DNA of 64,000 nucleotides from Candidatus Woesearchaeota archaeon. GTDB taxonomy: Archaea; Nanobdellota; Nanobdellia; Woesearchaeales; UBA12501. The stretch spans positions 4,596 to 68,595 of the forward strand of contig JAWOBY010000048.1 in NCBI GenBank assembly GCA_046484055.1, in the 5' to 3' direction. How positions within the stretch are numbered: position 1 is the first letter of the stretch; every line of letters begins with the position of its first letter. The translations under genes and the position numbers were made by a program. The notes beneath the pieces are model-generated. The model ran no database searches and was not told where the DNA came from. It saw only the letters and a program-made list of their open reading frames with translations. Shown piece by piece: positions 2,840 through 39,800 of this stretch.

Positions 2840-3600
2840 CTATTTCCCCTCTGTCCTGTTCCCACTTTGTCTTTTCCCCCCTTGATCTTCTTCAGGAAAC
2901 CCATGAGCGCGTAGGCCTCTCTTCTTGTCATCATGCTCTTGCCTATCAGCCTTTTCCACAGTTTCTTCTGGGTGTCTCTTTTCTCTTCTGTGGCGAAGTC
3001 CATGCGCTCGAGCACATCATCAAGTATCCTTTCTATCTGTCTCTTCTCCTTCACGCCTATAGGAGCGATACCTTCTGTTATCTTTCCCTTTCCGCTTCCT
3101 GTTCTTGAGTGAATGATGTACATCACCACAGCCGCGGCATGGCTCAGGTTCATCGCGGGATACTTCCTTGTTGTGGGTATTGCTGTTGTGAAATCGCACC
3201 TGCTGAGATCATCATTCGTCAGGCCGTATGATTCATTGCCGAACAATACTGCAATCCTTAATCTTCCTTTGGTCTGTTTTATGCTTCCTATCCATCCGGC
3301 GAGCTCCTCGGGACTGAGGGGGCATCTCGGGAGGTTGTAGTCAGTCCCTAATTTTGAGATCGTGCCGATGACATAATCATGCCTTTCAGCTATACTGCTA
3401 AGACTCTCCACTTCAGCATTTTTGAGAATGTCCTTGGCGTGCGATGCCCGGTCCATGGACTCCTTTGAAAGGTGGTCGCATTCCGGATTTGAGAGTATCA
3501 GGCGGCTGAATCCGAAGTTCTTCATGACCCTTGCCACAGCGCCTATGTTGCCGGGGGTTACCGGCTTGACGAGTACTATCGATATCATGCGCGGAATCAC
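2836..3600 (-). CDS. SpoU-class RNA 2'-O-methyltransferase (TrmJ-like)
   Basis: VLVKPVTPGNIGAVARVMKNFGF ... LFGNESYGL ... IPT..KYPAMNLSHAAAVVMY are SPOUT motifs. The gene overlaps the downstream gene by 4 nt. Confidence 0.8.
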   Translation of the reverse strand: MIPRMISIVLVKPVTPGNIGAVARVMKNFGFSRLILSNPECDHLSKESMDRASHAKDILKNAEVESLSSIAERHDYVIGTISKLGTDYNLPRCPLSPEELAGWIGSIKQTKGRLRIAVLFGNESYGLTNDDLSRCDFTTAIPTTRKYPAMNLSHAAAVVMYIIHSRTGSGKGKITEGIAPIGVKEKRQIERILDDVLERMDFATEEKRDTQKKLWKRLIGKSMMTRREAYALMGFLKKIKGGKDKVGTGQRGNR

Positions 3601-3609
3601 ATGGCCTGC

Positions 3610-4770
3610 CTATATAAAATTTGCCAATTTCCTTATGGCCTTCATCTCATCCTTTTCCCCTATCCTGGCCTGCCGTATTGCATCCCTAAGCATGTCAGTG
3701 CTCCGGTCCATGAGCTCCCTGTCGACAGGGTAGGGCACTGAGTCCTTTCCTCCGTGAGCGAAGCTGAATTTTGCGGGATCCTTCCAGCTCGCCTTCTTCC
3801 CATGGACTATGTCTGATATGAGTGCCAGGCTTCTTATCGCCTTCGGGCCCATGCCTTTTACTGCGGAAAGCCCCTCATAATTCTTCGGCTGGAGCTCGTA
3901 CGCCCTCTCCAGAGTCCTCATGTTTATCTGGTGCATGTCCTTTATGTAATGGCTTCTCTGCATGCTGAATCTTTTTAACCCGCCATCACTGCTGAAATCA
4001 GCGAGTGTCTTCTGCTTCATGTCCCTGAAAAAGCGCCTGAACTCCCCGTCATTCACGACATCGACTGATATCCTGCGCGCATCCCCGCTCTCTCTTGATG
4101 TCATGTCAAGAGTTTCGTTTTCCTGCTTGTCCGCGCATATCGCGCTGTGCGGCTCTTCGACAAAACTCTTCACATTATTTGAGAGCCAGTGGTATCTTCT
4201 GGCATAACTGTTCTCATGGCCCAGGCCCTGCTGCACCACAGACCATTTTCCCTTCTCTGTCAGGAAGAAGCAGTGATGGTAGAGCTGGTAGGAATCCTGC
4301 ACCAGGCTGTTGTCCACCTTCGCTGCCATCCGTGAGGAATAGACAAGCTTTTCAGACTTTGCTGTCGTGATGCCGAAAGATTCTGATGCGGATTCTATCT
4401 GCCCTGGCGCTTTCCTTGATGCAGCTCCTTTCCCCCCTGCTATGAACATCCCCACATCTGCCTTGTTTATGCCTTCTTTCAATGCGCCGCATAAAGTTGT
4501 CGTAAGACCTGAGCTGTGCCAGTCAAAACCGATGACACAGCCGAGGCTCTGGAAGAAATAAGGGTCTGAGATGCGCCGGAGGAATTCGTCATGGCCGTAC
4601 TCATCTATTATCGCCTCTGTTATCGCGCCGCCCATCCTCACCATTCTCTTGAACAGCCAGGGAGGTGCGTTTCCTGTATGAAGGGGTAGATTTGTCATTC
4701 CGGTCCTTTGCATACAGGTTATGCTGTGTGCCTGCCTTATATATCTTTTTGCGGCATGTCCAGTGTCCAA
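3610..4770 (-). CDS. DUF763 family protein
   Basis: LPLHTGNAPPWLFKRMVRMGGAITEAIIDEYGHDEFLRRISDPYFFQSLGCVIGFDWHSSGLTTT matches my recollection of the conserved DUF763 N-terminus. The true start is probably an internal ATG (4713 or 4698). Confidence 0.65.
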   Translation of the reverse strand: MDTGHAAKRYIRQAHSITCMQRTGMTNLPLHTGNAPPWLFKRMVRMGGAITEAIIDEYGHDEFLRRISDPYFFQSLGCVIGFDWHSSGLTTTLCGALKEGINKADVGMFIAGGKGAASRKAPGQIESASESFGITTAKSEKLVYSSRMAAKVDNSLVQDSYQLYHHCFFLTEKGKWSVVQQGLGHENSYARRYHWLSNNVKSFVEEPHSAICADKQENETLDMTSRESGDARRISVDVVNDGEFRRFFRDMKQKTLADFSSDGGLKRFSMQRSHYIKDMHQINMRTLERAYELQPKNYEGLSAVKGMGPKAIRSLALISDIVHGKKASWKDPAKFSFAHGGKDSVPYPVDRELMDRSTDMLRDAIRQARIGEKDEMKAIRKLANFI

Positions 4771-8827: not shown

Positions 8828-9505
8828 TCATGCTGTCTGGGCCCTGCCCTCTGCATGAGAATCCTGCCCCTGCACGCCCTCCTTCTTCATGAGAACCTTT
8901 TTTCTCTTGTTGGAATACCTGTGCGCTAGATGCAGCGGCTCGGGAAGCTTGTGGGGGTGGATTATGAACCTCTTGACAAGGTCTTCCGCGGTCCTTACGC
9001 TTATCCTGTGGCCGGGTGATACATAGAGGGGCTTTGCATAATCCCTTGTCTTGACCTCCGCAGCCCGTATCTCCTTGTCCACTTCCACTTTGCCTTCCAT
9101 AACTTTGCCCATCATCAGGTTTTTTGCGATGCCTATGGTTGGTACATCCAGGGCTATGCCCAGCTGGGATGCCATCCCTATCCTTCTCGGGTGCAGTATG
9201 CCGTTCGCATCAACCATGAGCACATCCGGCCTTGTCCTGAGCTTGCTGAACGCCTCTACCACAGCGGGCCCTTCCCTGTAGAACATGTAGCCTGGTATGT
9301 ATGGCATCCTGCATTCAGCCACTTCATGGGCCGAATCAACAATCTTCATGTTCCTGTCCATCACCACAACATATGATATTATCCTGTTGTCATCGGTATA
9401 TGCCTGATCGCAGCCCCCTATGTACTCGATATCCTCAAACATGTCATTTGTTATAACATTCTCCGCGAGTCTCTGCTGCTCTGACTTGAGCTTTAGCTTG
9501 TGCAT
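8828..9505 (-). CDS. nfi: endonuclease V
   Basis: YIGGCDQAY ... RMPYIPGYMFYREGPAVVEAF ... VLMVDANGILHPRRIGMASQLGIALDVPTIGIAK are canonical Nfi motifs. Confidence 0.85.
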   Translation of the reverse strand: MHKLKLKSEQQRLAENVITNDMFEDIEYIGGCDQAYTDDNRIISYVVVMDRNMKIVDSAHEVAECRMPYIPGYMFYREGPAVVEAFSKLRTRPDVLMVDANGILHPRRIGMASQLGIALDVPTIGIAKNLMMGKVMEGKVEVDKEIRAAEVKTRDYAKPLYVSPGHRISVRTAEDLVKRFIIHPHKLPEPLHLAHRYSNKRKKVLMKKEGVQGQDSHAEGRAQTA

Positions 9506-10545
9506 TCTTTGGCACCTCCTCCATTCTCCATCTCAGGGGAATATTCCACCACAATATTCCTATTCTTTGTATTCTTGGCTGCGTAAAGCGCCTTGTCCGC
9601 CCGGCGGTATATTGTATCATATATTTCTCTGGGCCTCATACCTTCAAAGTCTGAGGGATTGAATACTGTATATCCCATGCTTATGGTGATGCTTGTGCTG
9701 TCCTTGCCGGGGGTTTTTCCGTCCGGGGAAGTCATCAGTGAGTAGGTGTCCTTCTCATCAATCTTAGGGTATTCAGGCAGTCTTGTGTCCTCGACATTCT
9801 TCCTCATCCTCTCAACAACATCAAATGCACTTTCCTTTGGGACTCCGTAGAGAAGGAACATGAATTCCTCTCCCCCCATCCTTCCTCCCTGGTTCTCGTA
9901 ATCCCCTCCTCTCTCGCCTATATCCTCATCCCTCAATGAGCTGTTTAGAGATTCTGCCACTCTCTTGAGCGCTTCGTCGCCTGCGGGATAATGGCCATAA
10001 GTATTATTGTATTCCCCGAAATGGTCTATATCACCTATTGCTATAGTGAACTCTTCTCCTGTCCTGAGAGATCTCGCGATCTCCTGCTTTACCCTGTTCA
10101 TGAATGCTTCTCTCTTGTAGAGGCCTGTAAGCCCGTCAAAATTCACAAGATTGTCGACCTCATCTGCAAGCTCATCCCTATTGGTTTCAAGTCTCTTGTG
10201 TTCTTTCTGCATCTCGTTTATCATATTCTTGTAGGTATCTATCTTCTCCCTGATAAGGTTGGGGCTCTTGAGCGCTTCAGTGAAAGGGATTCTCTTGTCA
10301 AGGTCATATGACTGCGGTTTCCCCTCCTCCTTTCTCATCCCCAGCCTCTCGTAGTTCCTGTCAATCATGACCTCATACAATCCTATGGATTCTAGTAATG
10401 AGGTGATCTCTTCTCTCCGCTCAGAATAATAGTCGTAAAGGTCTGAAATCTGCTTAAGTGTCCTGAGATTCTCTTTTTCCCTGTCTGAAAGGCCGGCATT
10501 CGCGATCTCTTCCAGCTGGTTCTTCGGGTCTTCAGGCATTTCCAT
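9493..10545 (-). CDS. GGDEF-domain nucleotide cyclase (diguanylate cyclase-like) with N-terminal coiled coil
   Basis: DIDHFGEYNNTYGHYPAGDEALK ... GGRMGGEEFMFLLYG ... RADKALYAAKNTKNR. The maximal ORF reaches 10635 (GTG). The ATGs at 10545/10539 are preceded by AGGTGA, so I prefer them. The 3' end overlaps the nfi start by 13 nt. Confidence 0.8.
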   Translation of the reverse strand: MEMPEDPKNQLEEIANAGLSDREKENLRTLKQISDLYDYYSERREEITSLLESIGLYEVMIDRNYERLGMRKEEGKPQSYDLDKRIPFTEALKSPNLIREKIDTYKNMINEMQKEHKRLETNRDELADEVDNLVNFDGLTGLYKREAFMNRVKQEIARSLRTGEEFTIAIGDIDHFGEYNNTYGHYPAGDEALKRVAESLNSSLRDEDIGERGGDYENQGGRMGGEEFMFLLYGVPKESAFDVVERMRKNVEDTRLPEYPKIDEKDTYSLMTSPDGKTPGKDSTSITISMGYTVFNPSDFEGMRPREIYDTIYRRADKALYAAKNTKNRNIVVEYSPEMENGGGAKECTS

Positions 10546-10780
10546 TTTCACCTTTTTGGACTGTACTGTGGGTTTTTCATGCGGTCCTTTTCGCAGGCAT
10601 GTTGAACCCTGCACCCCATACAAACTTTTTACCACTGATTAAGAATAACTAATATATAAAGTTTTCTGTTTTTTACCACTTAATAGTTAATATTATTTGG
10701 TGCTGTTGGCAGTCACAACCCATAATTCTGATCCCCTCTTGTTGGTGATGCAGGCTGTCAGGATACAAAAGCCAGAATAA

Positions 10781-11180
10781 TAAAAATTTGACCATTATCT
10801 TGTCAAAACCTAGCGGTTTTTCCCCTTTGTGTTCAACTGAAATCATTTAAACAGTTGAACACAACGTATAAGCAAGCCCTAACCACACCTTAAAAGGTGA
10901 GGTATTAACGGATTTGTACTTTACATGGTCAAATTTTTAGTCTTGAAAATTTCTCCCCTAAGTCGAAATTTTCAATAAGCTTTATTTGGGGTAATGCCTT
11001 TATAATGCCTCCAGAGAAGGTCAGGAGCGTCTGCAGTGGGTTGTGCTGGAGGATTAGGAAGGCCCCCCGTGGAAAGGATTTGTTGGGGGTGGTTGAGAAA
11101 ACAGAACCAATCAGGGGGGCCTTTGAAAATGAATATTCTGCCATTGCAGGACATTCGGTCTTGCATGGCATTGTTTTTTT
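10781..11180 (+). ncRNA. candidate structured non-coding RNA (family unknown)
   Basis: The region has no convincing ORF.
- A 15-bp long-range helix (10781-10795 / 10925-10939) encloses hairpins at 10827-10864 (13 bp) and 10805-10820 (6 bp).
- An 11-bp hairpin sits at 10943-10975.
- A 7-bp helix pairs 11008-11014 with 11046-11052.
- A 10-bp GC helix pairs 11059-11068 with 11114-11123.
- A terminal hairpin at 11140-11169 is followed by T7.
- Two G-U pairs are valid only on the + strand. Confidence 0.35.
11140..11180 (+). terminator. hairpin plus T7 run (terminator-like)
   Basis: GCCATTGCAGGAC attcg GTCTTGCATGGC forms 12 bp with one bulged T and one G-U pair. It is followed by attgTTTTTTT. Further T runs lie downstream (11201-11208). 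Confidence 0.45.
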
Positions 11181-11250
11181 GGGTTTCTAAAGGTCCTGTT
11201 CTTTTTTTTGTGGCTTTTCTGTGCTGATTTTGCGCTTTTACGGCCTTTTC

Positions 11251-11658
11251 CTACGGTTTTGGCTGGCCGTGCACCTCGCGGCTCCACATCACCCCTATTT
11301 TTGTCAATGCCTTGTTGAAACTGTCTGATATGCGGTACTTCTTCTGGTATAGATCATAATCTATCAAACCCATGCCTTTCATCGGCGTCAGGATGCGATC
11401 GTAAAACTGCCTTTTGTTGTATGATATCCTTTCCCTCTTTTTCCCCATTCTGCCCATAGGCCCTTTCTCCTCTACTTCCACAAGAGTGCCGTCATGCAGT
11501 TTGTTGGCGAAGACAGACATCTCTGTCTTCCCCATCTCGCCGTTTCTGGCTTTCATCTCGTTTATGAGCATCTTTGCCACGAGGGCCTGTTGCTCTGTTG
11601 CAAATATGACCTCATACACATTATCAGGCAGGTTGAACCTGTCAAATAACATGACCAT
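11251..11658 (-). CDS. hypothetical protein (possible C-terminal wHTH)
   Basis: 135-aa ORF with coding-like composition. FYDRILTPMKGMGLIDYDLYQKKYRIS resembles a helix-wing. I recognised no family. Confidence 0.5.
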   Translation of the reverse strand: MVMLFDRFNLPDNVYEVIFATEQQALVAKMLINEMKARNGEMGKTEMSVFANKLHDGTLVEVEEKGPMGRMGKKRERISYNKRQFYDRILTPMKGMGLIDYDLYQKKYRISDSFNKALTKIGVMWSREVHGQPKP

Positions 11659-11994
11659 TTCAAACGTGTAAATATAAACTAGTATATAAATGTTACGCTT
11701 TTGAGTATTAGTATAGCTTTTTGTATACTGGATAATTCTCTACCGTATGGTCCTCATGCAAGGTAGTTTTGCCAATTTATTCACTACTTAAAAGAAATAA
11801 AAAAAAGAAAAATTTATAAAATCGGCTCCGCACCCACAAGACACCTCCCCTCCATATCACCCATCATGAACTGCATACAAAACCGCATCATGCCTGAATG
11901 CATACAAGGCCCCACATAAAATACGCTTAAAATGCCCCCACACCTTCTTCTGAAGGACGGACAGAAAATGAACAGAGAGTGAAACAAACAGAAA

Positions 11995-12738
11995 ATGAGA
12001 CACACAGGATTCAGCACAGGATGCCTGCACGGTTCAGGCATGAGCATGGAAGAGATTGTTGAGCTTTACTTATCCGCAGGAGCGGACGCTATAGAGCTCA
12101 GCTTCGCTACCCCTCAGGAGATGGAAGATTTCCAGCTCTCTGACAATCTTTCCGGAAAGATCAACAAGTTCGATTATGTGACAGTCCATGCCCCATGGAA
12201 AAGAAACTATCACTTCCACGACGAGGAGGCAAGGATGGTGGTTGATAAAATCGGAGAGATATCCGCGAAGGCAGACATAAGGGGGGTCGTGGTGCATCCG
12301 GATCCTTTGCCCCCTCTCAACATTCTGATGGAATCAGGCATTCCATTCCTCATAGAGAATATGGACCACATGAAGTATTTCGGGACAGAACCAAAACACT
12401 TCCGCCAGTTCAAGAGATATTACAATCTTGATTTTGTCTTTGACATCCAGCACGCGTACGAGCATGACCCGTCCATGAAACTCGCCGAAGAGCTTATGAT
12501 ATGTATAGGCCCCCGGCTGAAGCACATGCACGCCAGCGGGCAGGCGGGAGGTCTTAACCATTCGCTTATACACGCTGCAGAGAACAGGGACGCGATCACA
12601 GGCATACTTCAGAAAGCGGCAGGGTTGGGGATTGAAAAACCTGTAATAATTGAGGGGGTCATGTCCGGCAGTAGGGAAAATTTCTATAATTCAGCAAGGA
12701 AAGAGATGGAGCTTGTGAAGGAGTATTACAGAAAATAA
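11995..12738 (+). CDS. xylose isomerase-like TIM-barrel protein (sugar phosphate isomerase/epimerase or AP-endonuclease 2 fold)
   Basis: GFSTGCLHG ... GADAIELSF ... VTVHAPW ... VVVHPD ... IENM ... MHASG follows the pattern of this TIM-barrel family. Confidence 0.65.
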   Translation: MRHTGFSTGCLHGSGMSMEEIVELYLSAGADAIELSFATPQEMEDFQLSDNLSGKINKFDYVTVHAPWKRNYHFHDEEARMVVDKIGEISAKADIRGVVVHPDPLPPLNILMESGIPFLIENMDHMKYFGTEPKHFRQFKRYYNLDFVFDIQHAYEHDPSMKLAEELMICIGPRLKHMHASGQAGGLNHSLIHAAENRDAITGILQKAAGLGIEKPVIIEGVMSGSRENFYNSARKEMELVKEYYRK

Positions 12739-39135: not shown

Positions 39136-39150
39136 GTATATTATTTCCAC

Positions 39151-39239
39151 AAAGCCGAAAACTGAAACATTTATGTAGCGAAAATCAGGGATTTTCTGGG
39201 TTTGTTAGACAAGCTAACAAACTTTCAGATGAAGGCTTT
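39151..39239. other. structured module M1
   Basis: The outer helix pairs AAAGCC 39151-56 with GGCTTT 39234-39, and CTGAAA 39162-67 with TTTCAG 39223-28. It encloses hairpin GAAAATC-agg-GATTTTC (39180-96) and hairpin TTTGTTAG-acaag-CTAACAAA (39201-21). Confidence 0.5.
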
Positions 39240-39249
39240 TGGAAAGCTT

Positions 39250-39427
39250 AAAAATCCGCTGTCAATACAATCGCCGTCAAACTGAAACAACAGAAAATAT
39301 TTCATATTTTCTTAGTTCCAAAACCTTCGGTTTTGAAACCTCATAAAAATGCAAAGCATTTTTAGGACGCCAAAAATCTATGATTTTTGAGCGTTTAGGT
39401 TTCAGTCAGGCGATTGTGCGGATTTTT
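39250..39427. other. structured module M2
   Basis: The composite outer helix has three segments:
- 10 bp: 39250-59 / 39418-27.
- 9 bp: 39267-75 / 39409-17.
- 8 bp: 39281-88 / 39399-406.
It encloses four perfect hairpins with 3-nt loops:
- 39292-312 (9 bp).
- 39319-35 (7 bp).
- 39345-63 (8 bp).
- 39371-89 (8 bp). Confidence 0.55.
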
Positions 39428-39449
39428 TTGATTTTATCTCTCTTATTCA

Positions 39450-39571
39450 GGCAGCAACAACAATGGATTCATACACGGTCAAAGCCTTCGGCTTTGCCCT
39501 ATTCGTAAAGGAAAAAACCACACTGCGTATGGTTTTTTCCTCTACACTCAGTATTCATCCTTGTTGCTGCC
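39450..39571. other. structured module M3
   Basis: The outer helix is 11 bp (39450-60 / 39561-71), then 4+4 bp (39465-74 / 39551-60). It encloses CAAAGCC-ttc-GGCTTTG (39480-96) and an 11-bp hairpin GGAAAAAACCA / TGGTTTTTTCC (39510-40). Confidence 0.5.
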
Positions 39572-39576
39572 AACGG

Positions 39577-39730
39577 GGCGGTGATGATGGCGCTGGCGAG
39601 GCGGGGGATGGTTGCCGAGCGTAGTGAGCGCAACTAAGGAAATCTCTGATTTCCTGTTCCCCCCTACGGGGTGGCGAGTAGGGCTCCGAACATAGTGAGG
39701 AGACCGTCAGCCGCCATAATCATCACCGCC
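39577..39730. other. structured GC-rich module M4
   Basis: The outer helix is 12 bp (39577-88 / 39719-30), then 4 bp (39589-92 / 39712-15), then 5 bp including one G-U (39593-97 / 39706-10). Inside are hairpin AGGAAATC-tct-GATTTCCT (39637-55) and two paralogous hairpins (39611-34 and 39682-705) with 11-nt loops GAGCGTAGTGA and GAACATAGTGA. Confidence 0.5.
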
Positions 39731-39800
39731 AAAAACATTAAGAAATAATTACAGACCAATGTTGTTGCTGCCTGCAAAAGACTATTAGAGAACTACTTAT

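Follow-up and report, generated by a model that had tools for sequence, protein, structure and literature searches.

The gap between a gene for a GGDEF-domain protein and a gene for a 135-amino-acid (135-aa) winged-helix-like protein in a Candidatus Woesearchaeota genome contains a conserved RNA hairpin with a large C-rich loop, which matches no known RNA family and which we call the C-loop element. The gap lies in a 64,000-nucleotide stretch of contig JAWOBY010000048.1 (assembly GCA_046484055.1), referred to below as the window. We consider it probable that the locus is composite and that its functional core is this element, read on the minus strand, representing an unannotated Woesearchaeota RNA family that acts as a 3′ untranslated region (UTR) or small RNA. 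A preliminary description, made from the sequence alone, had proposed a single independent transcript of the plus strand at this place. It had found a genuine unannotated RNA locus, but on the wrong strand and over-extended.

A conserved, covarying hairpin follows the 135-aa gene

To compare the whole gap, 80 species-representative loci carrying the 135-aa protein gene were searched by blastn and nhmmer (related loci are labelled L with a number). Two blocks were conserved, corresponding to window positions 11052-11127 and to a promoter-like segment at 10640-10675. The former, which comprises a 10-bp GC helix with the sequence inside it, shows about 85% identity to L001-L003; in every case it is found just 3′ of the 135-aa gene. 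A covariance model (CM R1) built from the relatives' copies gave a single match in the window, on the minus strand (11048-11138; 58.2 bits, E=3e-14), and matched 52 of the 80 loci, in all cases on the strand of the gene and downstream of it, with tandem second copies in several loci.

The association with the 135-aa gene was also recovered by a metagenome scan that used a DNA pattern alone (GCTCCC..AACCACCCYCC..GGGAGC) and returned 89 contigs. In 39 of these, the 135-aa gene was found 19-103 nt upstream on the same strand, and all 39 pass the CM. As a scan by pattern only also finds the gene, the linkage is free of ascertainment bias. The high-GC contigs failed the CM and are chance matches, while L096 and L139 contained too little upstream sequence to judge, and L148 has the pattern in an unassigned context. 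Every confirmed copy shares the strand of the 135-aa gene and lies 19-103 nt (up to about 400 nt) downstream of it.

The stem is maintained by compensatory change, as in the pair GGCUCCC/GGGAGCC of L001 vs GGCCCCCC/GGGGGGCC of the window. In a first alignment of 55 sequences, 92.5% of the stem cells were paired and double changes occurred at 9/9 pairs, with a covariation score of 0.657 vs 0.286 in shuffled alignments and at most 0.25 when the partners were slid. The combined alignment of 93 distinct copies, in which cell counts are not phylogenetically independent, had 91.5% of stem cells paired, double changes at 9/9 pairs, and 150 compensatory cells; its score of 0.512 was reached by 0/500 shuffles (0.228) and compares with at most 0.22 for slid partners. 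These comparisons establish that the element exists, is conserved and covaries, and is linked to the 135-aa gene. Among the structures that the preliminary description had combined into one RNA, then, the 10-bp GC helix is conserved with covariation, whereas the AT-rich hairpins, the CCTCCAG hairpin, and the hairpin at 11140-69 have no counterpart in syntenic relatives.

The window copy has a 10-bp stem with 8 G-C pairs enclosing a 45-nt interior loop. Profile and stem searches returned the same design at most loci, namely a G+C stem of 9-15 bp, a pyrimidine-rich loop of 27-60 nt and, usually, a T-rich tail. The stem consensus of the family is AAGGCUCCC.../...GGGAGCCUU, and the loop consensus, UUCU..AACCACCC(U)CCCC, is near-invariant over the 93 distinct copies. 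Between the window and its closest relatives, the invariant core reads GGUUCUGUUUUCUCAACCACCCCC on the gene strand. An inner hairpin, P2, of at least 6 bp was predicted in 19% of the members vs 3% in shuffles; as a universal feature of the family it was rejected, since it is confined to a subclade. The spacer that separates the stop codon from the element is A-rich throughout the family (46% A) and is about 85 nt longer in the window than in relatives, a window-specific insertion (alignments A2, A6).

The gap is indeed non-coding, as had been described. Its short open reading frames (ORFs) gave no family matches, and the conserved core differs between close relatives by indels of 1 and 5 nt, so that it is not coding. 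Likewise, the expectation that no Rfam family would match was borne out for the whole window: Rfam 15 at the gathering threshold gave 0 matches there and only 5S rRNA elsewhere in 17 related loci, while the E-value mode on 10500-11400 gave only sub-threshold noise, for instance from miRNA and snoRNA models. Neither tRNA nor tmRNA genes were found in the window or near the 135-aa gene in 60 loci. Viral contigs contained three pattern matches to the C-loop element, all of them high-GC chance matches that fail the CM. In the literature, we found no described RNA motif of this kind from Woesearchaeota or other DPANN archaea.

Every repeat and hairpin first described was recovered from the sequence and by a repeat finder (Table 1), and 3 of the 20 longest inverted repeats of the window fall within 200 bp at this gap. 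The region 10770-11185 folds beyond chance on both strands, with z-scores of -5.2 on the plus strand and -6.4 on the minus strand, and 0/100 shuffles were as stable. That the gap contains a genuine structured RNA is supported. Because both strands fold far better than shuffles, folding energy gives no strand preference.

Strand of the element and its transcription unit

Very likely, the element is encoded on the strand of the 135-aa gene, the minus strand of the window. In the first alignment, the family stem read on the gene strand contains G-U or U-G vs A-C or C-A cells at a ratio of 34:13; the combined alignment gives G-U vs A-C at 52:27, and 14:2 in the five best-aligned pairs. A T run of at least 5 follows the stem in 34/55 copies. 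We also tried to call the strand from energies, and rejected this approach as contradictory and confounded by loop composition.

The preliminary description had instead argued for an independent structured RNA of the plus strand, spanning about 10781-11180, starting at TTTATAA or further upstream and ending at the hairpin 11140-69 with its T7. This is very unlikely. In its favor are the T7 (11174-80) and T8 (11203-10) runs on the plus strand, the G-U pair of the hairpin 11140-69, which becomes A-C on the minus strand, a window in which no minus-strand T run of at least 5 directly follows the conserved stem, and the plus-strand folding z-score. The minus strand folds as well or better, however, and the sole conserved part keeps to the gene strand and has wobble pairs biased against the plus strand. 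The two G-U pairs taken as evidence of polarity are single instances, one of which (11058:11124) belongs to the outer end of the stem, where conservation is poor, and the T runs are the complement of the A-rich spacer, a family trait. In addition, the AT-rich helices assigned to this RNA are not conserved, and the two consensus TTTATATA promoters in 10500-11800 are both on the minus strand, the TTTATAA at 10999-11005 being a weaker promoter match than these boxes.

Woesearchaeota are DPANN archaea, whose promoters are of the BRE/TATA type (BRE, transcription factor B recognition element) and whose transcripts terminate at oligo-U. Conserved over many Woesearchaeota loci is a AACATTTATATACTAGTT promoter block about 25 nt before the ATG of the 135-aa gene, with AGTATAC-N7-GTATAC palindromes upstream; in the window, the promoter is preceded by GTATAC/TATACTA palindromes (11709-28). 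A TATA box this close to the ATG implies a leaderless 135-aa mRNA, and the AGTATAC-N7-GTATAC repeats are probably the autoregulatory operator of the winged-helix protein. The distance from the 135-aa stop codon to the next ORF has a median of 169 nt, and a convergent gene is often only 75-105 nt away, which leaves no room for a promoter of the element's own. The simplest reading is that the element would be co-transcribed as the 3′ UTR of the 135-aa gene. In L101 (1-383), the element comes about 65 nt after the XPD C-terminus and a typical 135-aa promoter, and the 135-aa gene is missing; this arrangement is only suggestive of an element that can also be driven alone by the 135-aa promoter.

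The protein itself is 100% identical to one from a Candidatus Woesearchaeota metagenome-assembled genome and has 2954 homologues, all in Woesearchaeota/Nanoarchaeota; exact-protein look-ups for other strains of the window's genome returned none. Its AlphaFold2 (AF2) model (pLDDT 78) has a predicted winged-helix-like fold, whose closest structural counterparts match only weakly (ORC2 winged-helix domain, eS19, and PadR-type LmrR; all E>=0.035, TM about 0.4), and it showed no sequence match in Pfam, NCBIfam, or PDB.

On this arrangement, the strong 135-aa promoter would give rise to a leaderless mRNA carrying the element as its 3′ UTR, possibly released as a small RNA of ~90 nt. The stem and the U-tract would define and stabilise the 3′ end, and the stem would display the C-rich loop single-stranded, as a surface for a protein (possibly the winged-helix protein) or for a G-rich RNA. 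The AT-rich palindromes at 10776-10975 and the CCTCCAG and 11140-69 hairpins are insertions particular to the lineage, and the A5...T5 helix would probably end or insulate the upstream transcript. Co-transcription, the 3′-end role, the function of the loop, and the role of the palindromes are all proposed here from the sequence comparisons. A stronger version would make the C-loop hairpin and the 135-aa protein partners in a dedicated RNA-protein pair found throughout Woesearchaeota, or the released RNA an anti-Shine-Dalgarno-like riboregulator; it is possible but rather doubtful.

Several observations weigh against an element of the minus strand with these roles, beside the dependence among alignment cells noted above. 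The element is missing from about a third of the species with the 135-aa gene. An A run of at least 5 precedes the stem in 23/55 copies, nearly as often as a T run follows it, so that the flanks look bidirectional, and the minimum free energy favours the reverse complement in 44/55 copies, a preference that we attribute to the G-rich antisense loop. The window copy has no U-tract after its stem (its longest T run there is 1), and neither do L001, L002, L170, and L172, while the best T runs of the window are on the plus strand. Complementarity of the loop to the ribosome-binding regions of the window is not enriched over that to internal gene segments. The transcription, strand, ends, and processing of the element are, moreover, all inferred.

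Terminator, DNA-level and known-RNA alternatives

The conserved hairpin might instead be merely a (bidirectional) terminator or 3′-end stabiliser for the 135-aa gene and its convergent neighbours, with a loop that has no separate function. The layout of A-tract, GC hairpin, and T-tract fits this, as does the position immediately behind the stop codon and frequently between convergent genes, and in L059 a plain 22-bp hairpin stands at the same place instead of the element. We nevertheless regard this explanation as unlikely. Archaeal termination is U-tract-driven with aCPSF1/FttA and does not need a hairpin, as far as the account of Li et al. 2021 (via PMC10450193) goes; a 35-60-nt loop with a near-invariant sequence of 10-14 nt across an order would be unexpected; tandem copies exist; L101 keeps the element without the 135-aa gene; and the window clade keeps it though the U-tract is lost. 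In a formal comparison, the G+C-rich stem typical of intrinsic terminators is present (10 bp, 8 G-C; 9-15 bp in the family), while the loop is 45 nt here rather than 3-8 nt, and a terminator scan found 0 sites. Bidirectional intrinsic terminators resemble the element in their A-rich 5′ and T-rich 3′ flanks, strong GC stem, and frequent location between convergent genes, but differ in their loop of 3-8 nt vs 35-60 nt and in that the loop sequence of the element is conserved across an order.

A further possibility concerns the palindromes, which could be DNA-level elements such as operator sites of the GGDEF gene, a MITE-like (miniature inverted-repeat transposable element) insertion, or a replication origin. 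The 15-, 13-, and 11-bp repeats are perfect and contain no wobble pairs, hence no strand information, they are lineage-specific insertions, and other short perfect palindromes of the window sit in promoter gaps. This too is highly improbable. The block 10776-10944 has a 15-bp terminal inverted repeat but no flanking (target-site) duplication, and no other copies were found in the window, viral contigs, or phage records. A distance of at least 100 bp separates the palindromes from the conserved GGDEF promoter/operator block downstream of them. As for an origin, no orc1/cdc6 was present among the 16 window ORFs scanned against Pfam, which include the flanking genes but not every ORF, and the segment between the repeats is hairpin-rich instead of a simple AT tract. 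For the conserved GC hairpin, this explanation does not apply, as covariation and wobble bias indicate RNA.

Among known classes, the closest parallels are small RNAs embedded in or derived from 3′ UTRs, which use the same terminator as their parent mRNA; such RNAs are known from bacteria, and for archaea there are descriptions of alternative 3′ UTR isoforms. Like these small RNAs, the element shares the strand of a coding gene and is placed right behind its stop codon, with a GC hairpin and U-tract in most members and a conserved single-stranded segment that is a possible seed, and it has a variant without the coding gene (L101). It is unlike them in that its conserved part is the loop inside the terminal hairpin instead of an upstream segment, in that it is strictly tied to one gene family, and in that it is known from sequence alone. 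Box C/D and H/ACA RNAs do not fit: neither a box D nor an ACA box is conserved in the consensus of 93 copies, and UGAUGA occurs in the 5′ flank of only a few members.

C-rich RNAs that pair with Shine-Dalgarno (SD) sequences, such as the UCCC-motif small RNAs of Firmicutes and the anti-SD tail of 16S rRNA, offer another comparison; the loop looks like an extended anti-SD sequence. Many members of the family have an unpaired, CCUCC-containing CCACCCUCCCC, and the window genome uses GGAGGUG-type ribosome-binding sites. In contrast to these RNAs, the window copy has no CCUCC, and its predicted duplex with a canonical SD has -10 vs -22 kcal/mol for a true anti-SD. Anti-SD targeting was rejected, since complementarity at the ribosome-binding regions of the window was no better than at internal gene segments; a 5S rRNA has no complement either. 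The loop was likewise rejected as a partner for the 5′ region of its own 135-aa gene, whose mRNA is leaderless and has no G-rich segment. A lead towards RNase P RNA on the plus strand (GGAAAG...ACAGAACC) failed as well: RNase P models gave no match at E<=10, at 45 nt the segment is too small for the 200-400-nt core of that RNA, and the family lies on the opposite strand.

Winged-helix domains are known to bind RNA hairpins in SelB with the selenocysteine insertion sequence (SECIS) and in the Roquin ROQ domain with the constitutive decay element (CDE), and the La motif binds 3′ oligo-U. The element resembles these systems as a 3′-UTR hairpin with a U-rich tail that is genetically coupled to a winged-helix-like protein. 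It differs from them in lacking sequence or structural homology, in the weak fold matches of the 135-aa protein, and in the apparent DNA operator at that protein's own promoter.

DPANN archaea are difficult to grow or have never been cultured and, to our knowledge, almost nothing is known of their regulatory RNAs. The C-loop element is a concrete, testable RNA-protein candidate for Woesearchaeota, being present in most sampled species and locked to a winged-helix gene beside XPD, and the covariance model is ready for annotating metagenome-assembled genomes. If the RNA-protein pair or the riboregulator were true, DPANN archaea would gain their first defined lineage-specific regulatory RNA system, with a gene and its 3′ RNA encoded from one autoregulated leaderless promoter. 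The locus also advises caution: strand could not be read from single G-U pairs and T runs, and the conspicuous perfect palindromes were the non-conserved part.

Lineage-specific insertions around the conserved core

L001 and L172 keep the gene order XPD-135aa-element-GGDEF-nfi-SfLAP. The 177-nt gap of L172 comprises only the element and the GGDEF promoter (GTGGTAAAAAA-AGAAAGATTTATATA), which matches window 10626-10702. As the L172 gap is without the block 10703-11047 and without about 85 nt of 11139-11250, both are lineage-specific insertions in the window. The block holds the palindromes and the CCTCCAG hairpin, and the insertion of about 85 nt in the spacer includes the hairpin 11140-69. The palindrome segment of the window folds with z=-4.7, while its L001 equivalent is unstructured (z=-1.5).

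In the window clade, the U-tract that follows the element elsewhere has been lost. The first minus-strand T5 after the element is at 10781-85, inside the 15-bp helix, and this A5/T5-clamped helix probably terminates or insulates transcription before it reaches the GGDEF promoter. In L059 (about 4396-4470), a perfect 22-bp hairpin, TAAAAATGCGTGAAACCGCCTC...GAGGCGGTTTCACGCATTTTTA (TAAAAAT...ATTTTTA), replaces the element right after the 135-aa gene; it shares A5/T5 clamps with the 15-bp helix of the window.

The GGDEF promoter is conserved in L001 and L172 and resembles the 135-aa promoter of many loci. One GTGGTAAAAA copy and a ACTAATTAGTGG palindrome are kept in both L172 and L001, and GTGGTAAAAA/ACTAATTAGTGG is a candidate regulator-binding site.

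Table 1. Features of the locus, in window coordinates.
Feature	Position	Strand	Remarks
GGDEF gene	9493-10545	-	Counterparts L001 4959-6017, L172 647-1774
GGDEF promoter	10626-10702	-	TATA TTTATATA 10653-60; A-rich BRE side; operator-like ACTATTAAGTGG upstream
GTGGTAAAAA direct repeats	10626-35 and 10670-79	-	Flank GGDEF TATA box
Palindrome block	10776-10944		Encloses hairpins 10827-64, 10805-20, 10882-10903; A5/T5 in both arms
Long-range helix, 15 bp perfect	10781-95 / 10925-39		Extends to 20 nt at 90%
AAAACC-tagc-GGTTTT hairpin	10805-20		
13-bp perfect hairpin	10827-39 / 10852-64		
11-bp perfect hairpin TTGAAAATTTC / GAAATTTTCAA	10943-53 / 10965-75		Lineage-specific
Direct repeat TAATGCCT	10992-99 and 11003-10		Flanks TTTATAA (10999-11005), a candidate promoter box; not conserved
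CCTCCAG / CTGGAGG hairpin	11008-14 / 11046-52		Lineage-specific; no counterpart in L001, L170, L171, L172
C-loop RNA element	11048-11138	-	5′ flank, stem P1, large pyrimidine/C-rich loop, 3′ flank
10-bp GC helix AAGGCCCCCC / GGGGGGCCTT	11059-68 / 11114-23		Perfect complement
P1 3′ arm	11059-11068	-	GGGGGGCCTT as read on the minus strand
G5 run	11085-89	+	
Loop core AACCACCCCC	11085-11094	-	Near-invariant; unchanged in closest relatives
Inner hairpin P2, UGGUU / AACCA	11090-11109	-	5 bp, optional
P1 5′ arm	11114-11123	-	AAGGCCCCCC as read on the minus strand
5′ flank GAAUAUUCAUUUUCA	11124-11138	-	Family motif AAUCAYRYUCA; gapless in CM alignments
A-rich spacer, 135-aa stop codon to element	11139-11250	-	Contains hairpin 11140-69; plus-strand T7 (11174-80), T8 (11203-10)
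Terminal hairpin	11140-69		12 pairs, one bulged T, one G-U; then T7 at 11174-80 (+)
135-aa winged-helix-like gene	11251-11658	-	Element-linked
135-aa gene promoter	11680-11730	-	TATA TTTATATA 11683-90, about 25 nt before ATG

Neighbouring genes and further observations

Among the scanned ORFs, the neighbours follow in the order nfi, GGDEF, 135-aa gene, a 247-aa ORF, and XPD helicase. The most likely start of the GGDEF gene is ATG 10545, which is preceded by an SD-like AAAGGTGA and gives a gap of 705 bp to the 135-aa gene. GTG 10635 was rejected as its start because the TATA box at 10653-60 is too near. The gene has an apparent 5′ UTR of ~85 nt, in which no riboswitch matched. It encodes a GGDEF (diguanylate cyclase) domain protein in a DPANN archaeon, and its synteny with endonuclease V is conserved; c-di-GMP signalling genes are uncommon in archaea.

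The 247-aa ORF (11995-12738, plus strand), which has no family match, separates XPD from the 135-aa gene and is encoded on the opposite strand. In the relatives inspected, L002 and L003, XPD is on the same strand as the 135-aa gene and ends about 110-150 nt before it, and XPD was detected in 34 loci in total; the 247-aa ORF may be a lineage-specific insertion. Its start is spanned by an 11-bp inverted repeat (11888-98 / 12033-43).

Tandem double copies of the element 3′ of the 135-aa gene were seen in L045 (4430-4636), L056 (4410-4849), L044 (4412-4589), L039 (4409-4593), L080 (4510-4749), L123 (2039-2230), L156 (1678-1869), and L158 (1350-1559). In L018, a locus without the C-loop element, about 1 kb separates the 135-aa gene from an upstream 5S rRNA gene (2905-3021, minus strand).

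The window contains a second ORF-free structured gap at 39136-39800, which gave no Rfam match at E<=1. It holds inverted repeats at 39450-68/39553-71, 39505-23/39527-45, and 39577-88/39719-30, and a GC-rich segment of ~155 nt closed by GGCGGTGATGAT/ATCATCACCGCC. CTGAAAC motifs are repeated within this gap, and the same motif occurs as a palindrome downstream of the C-loop element in L002.

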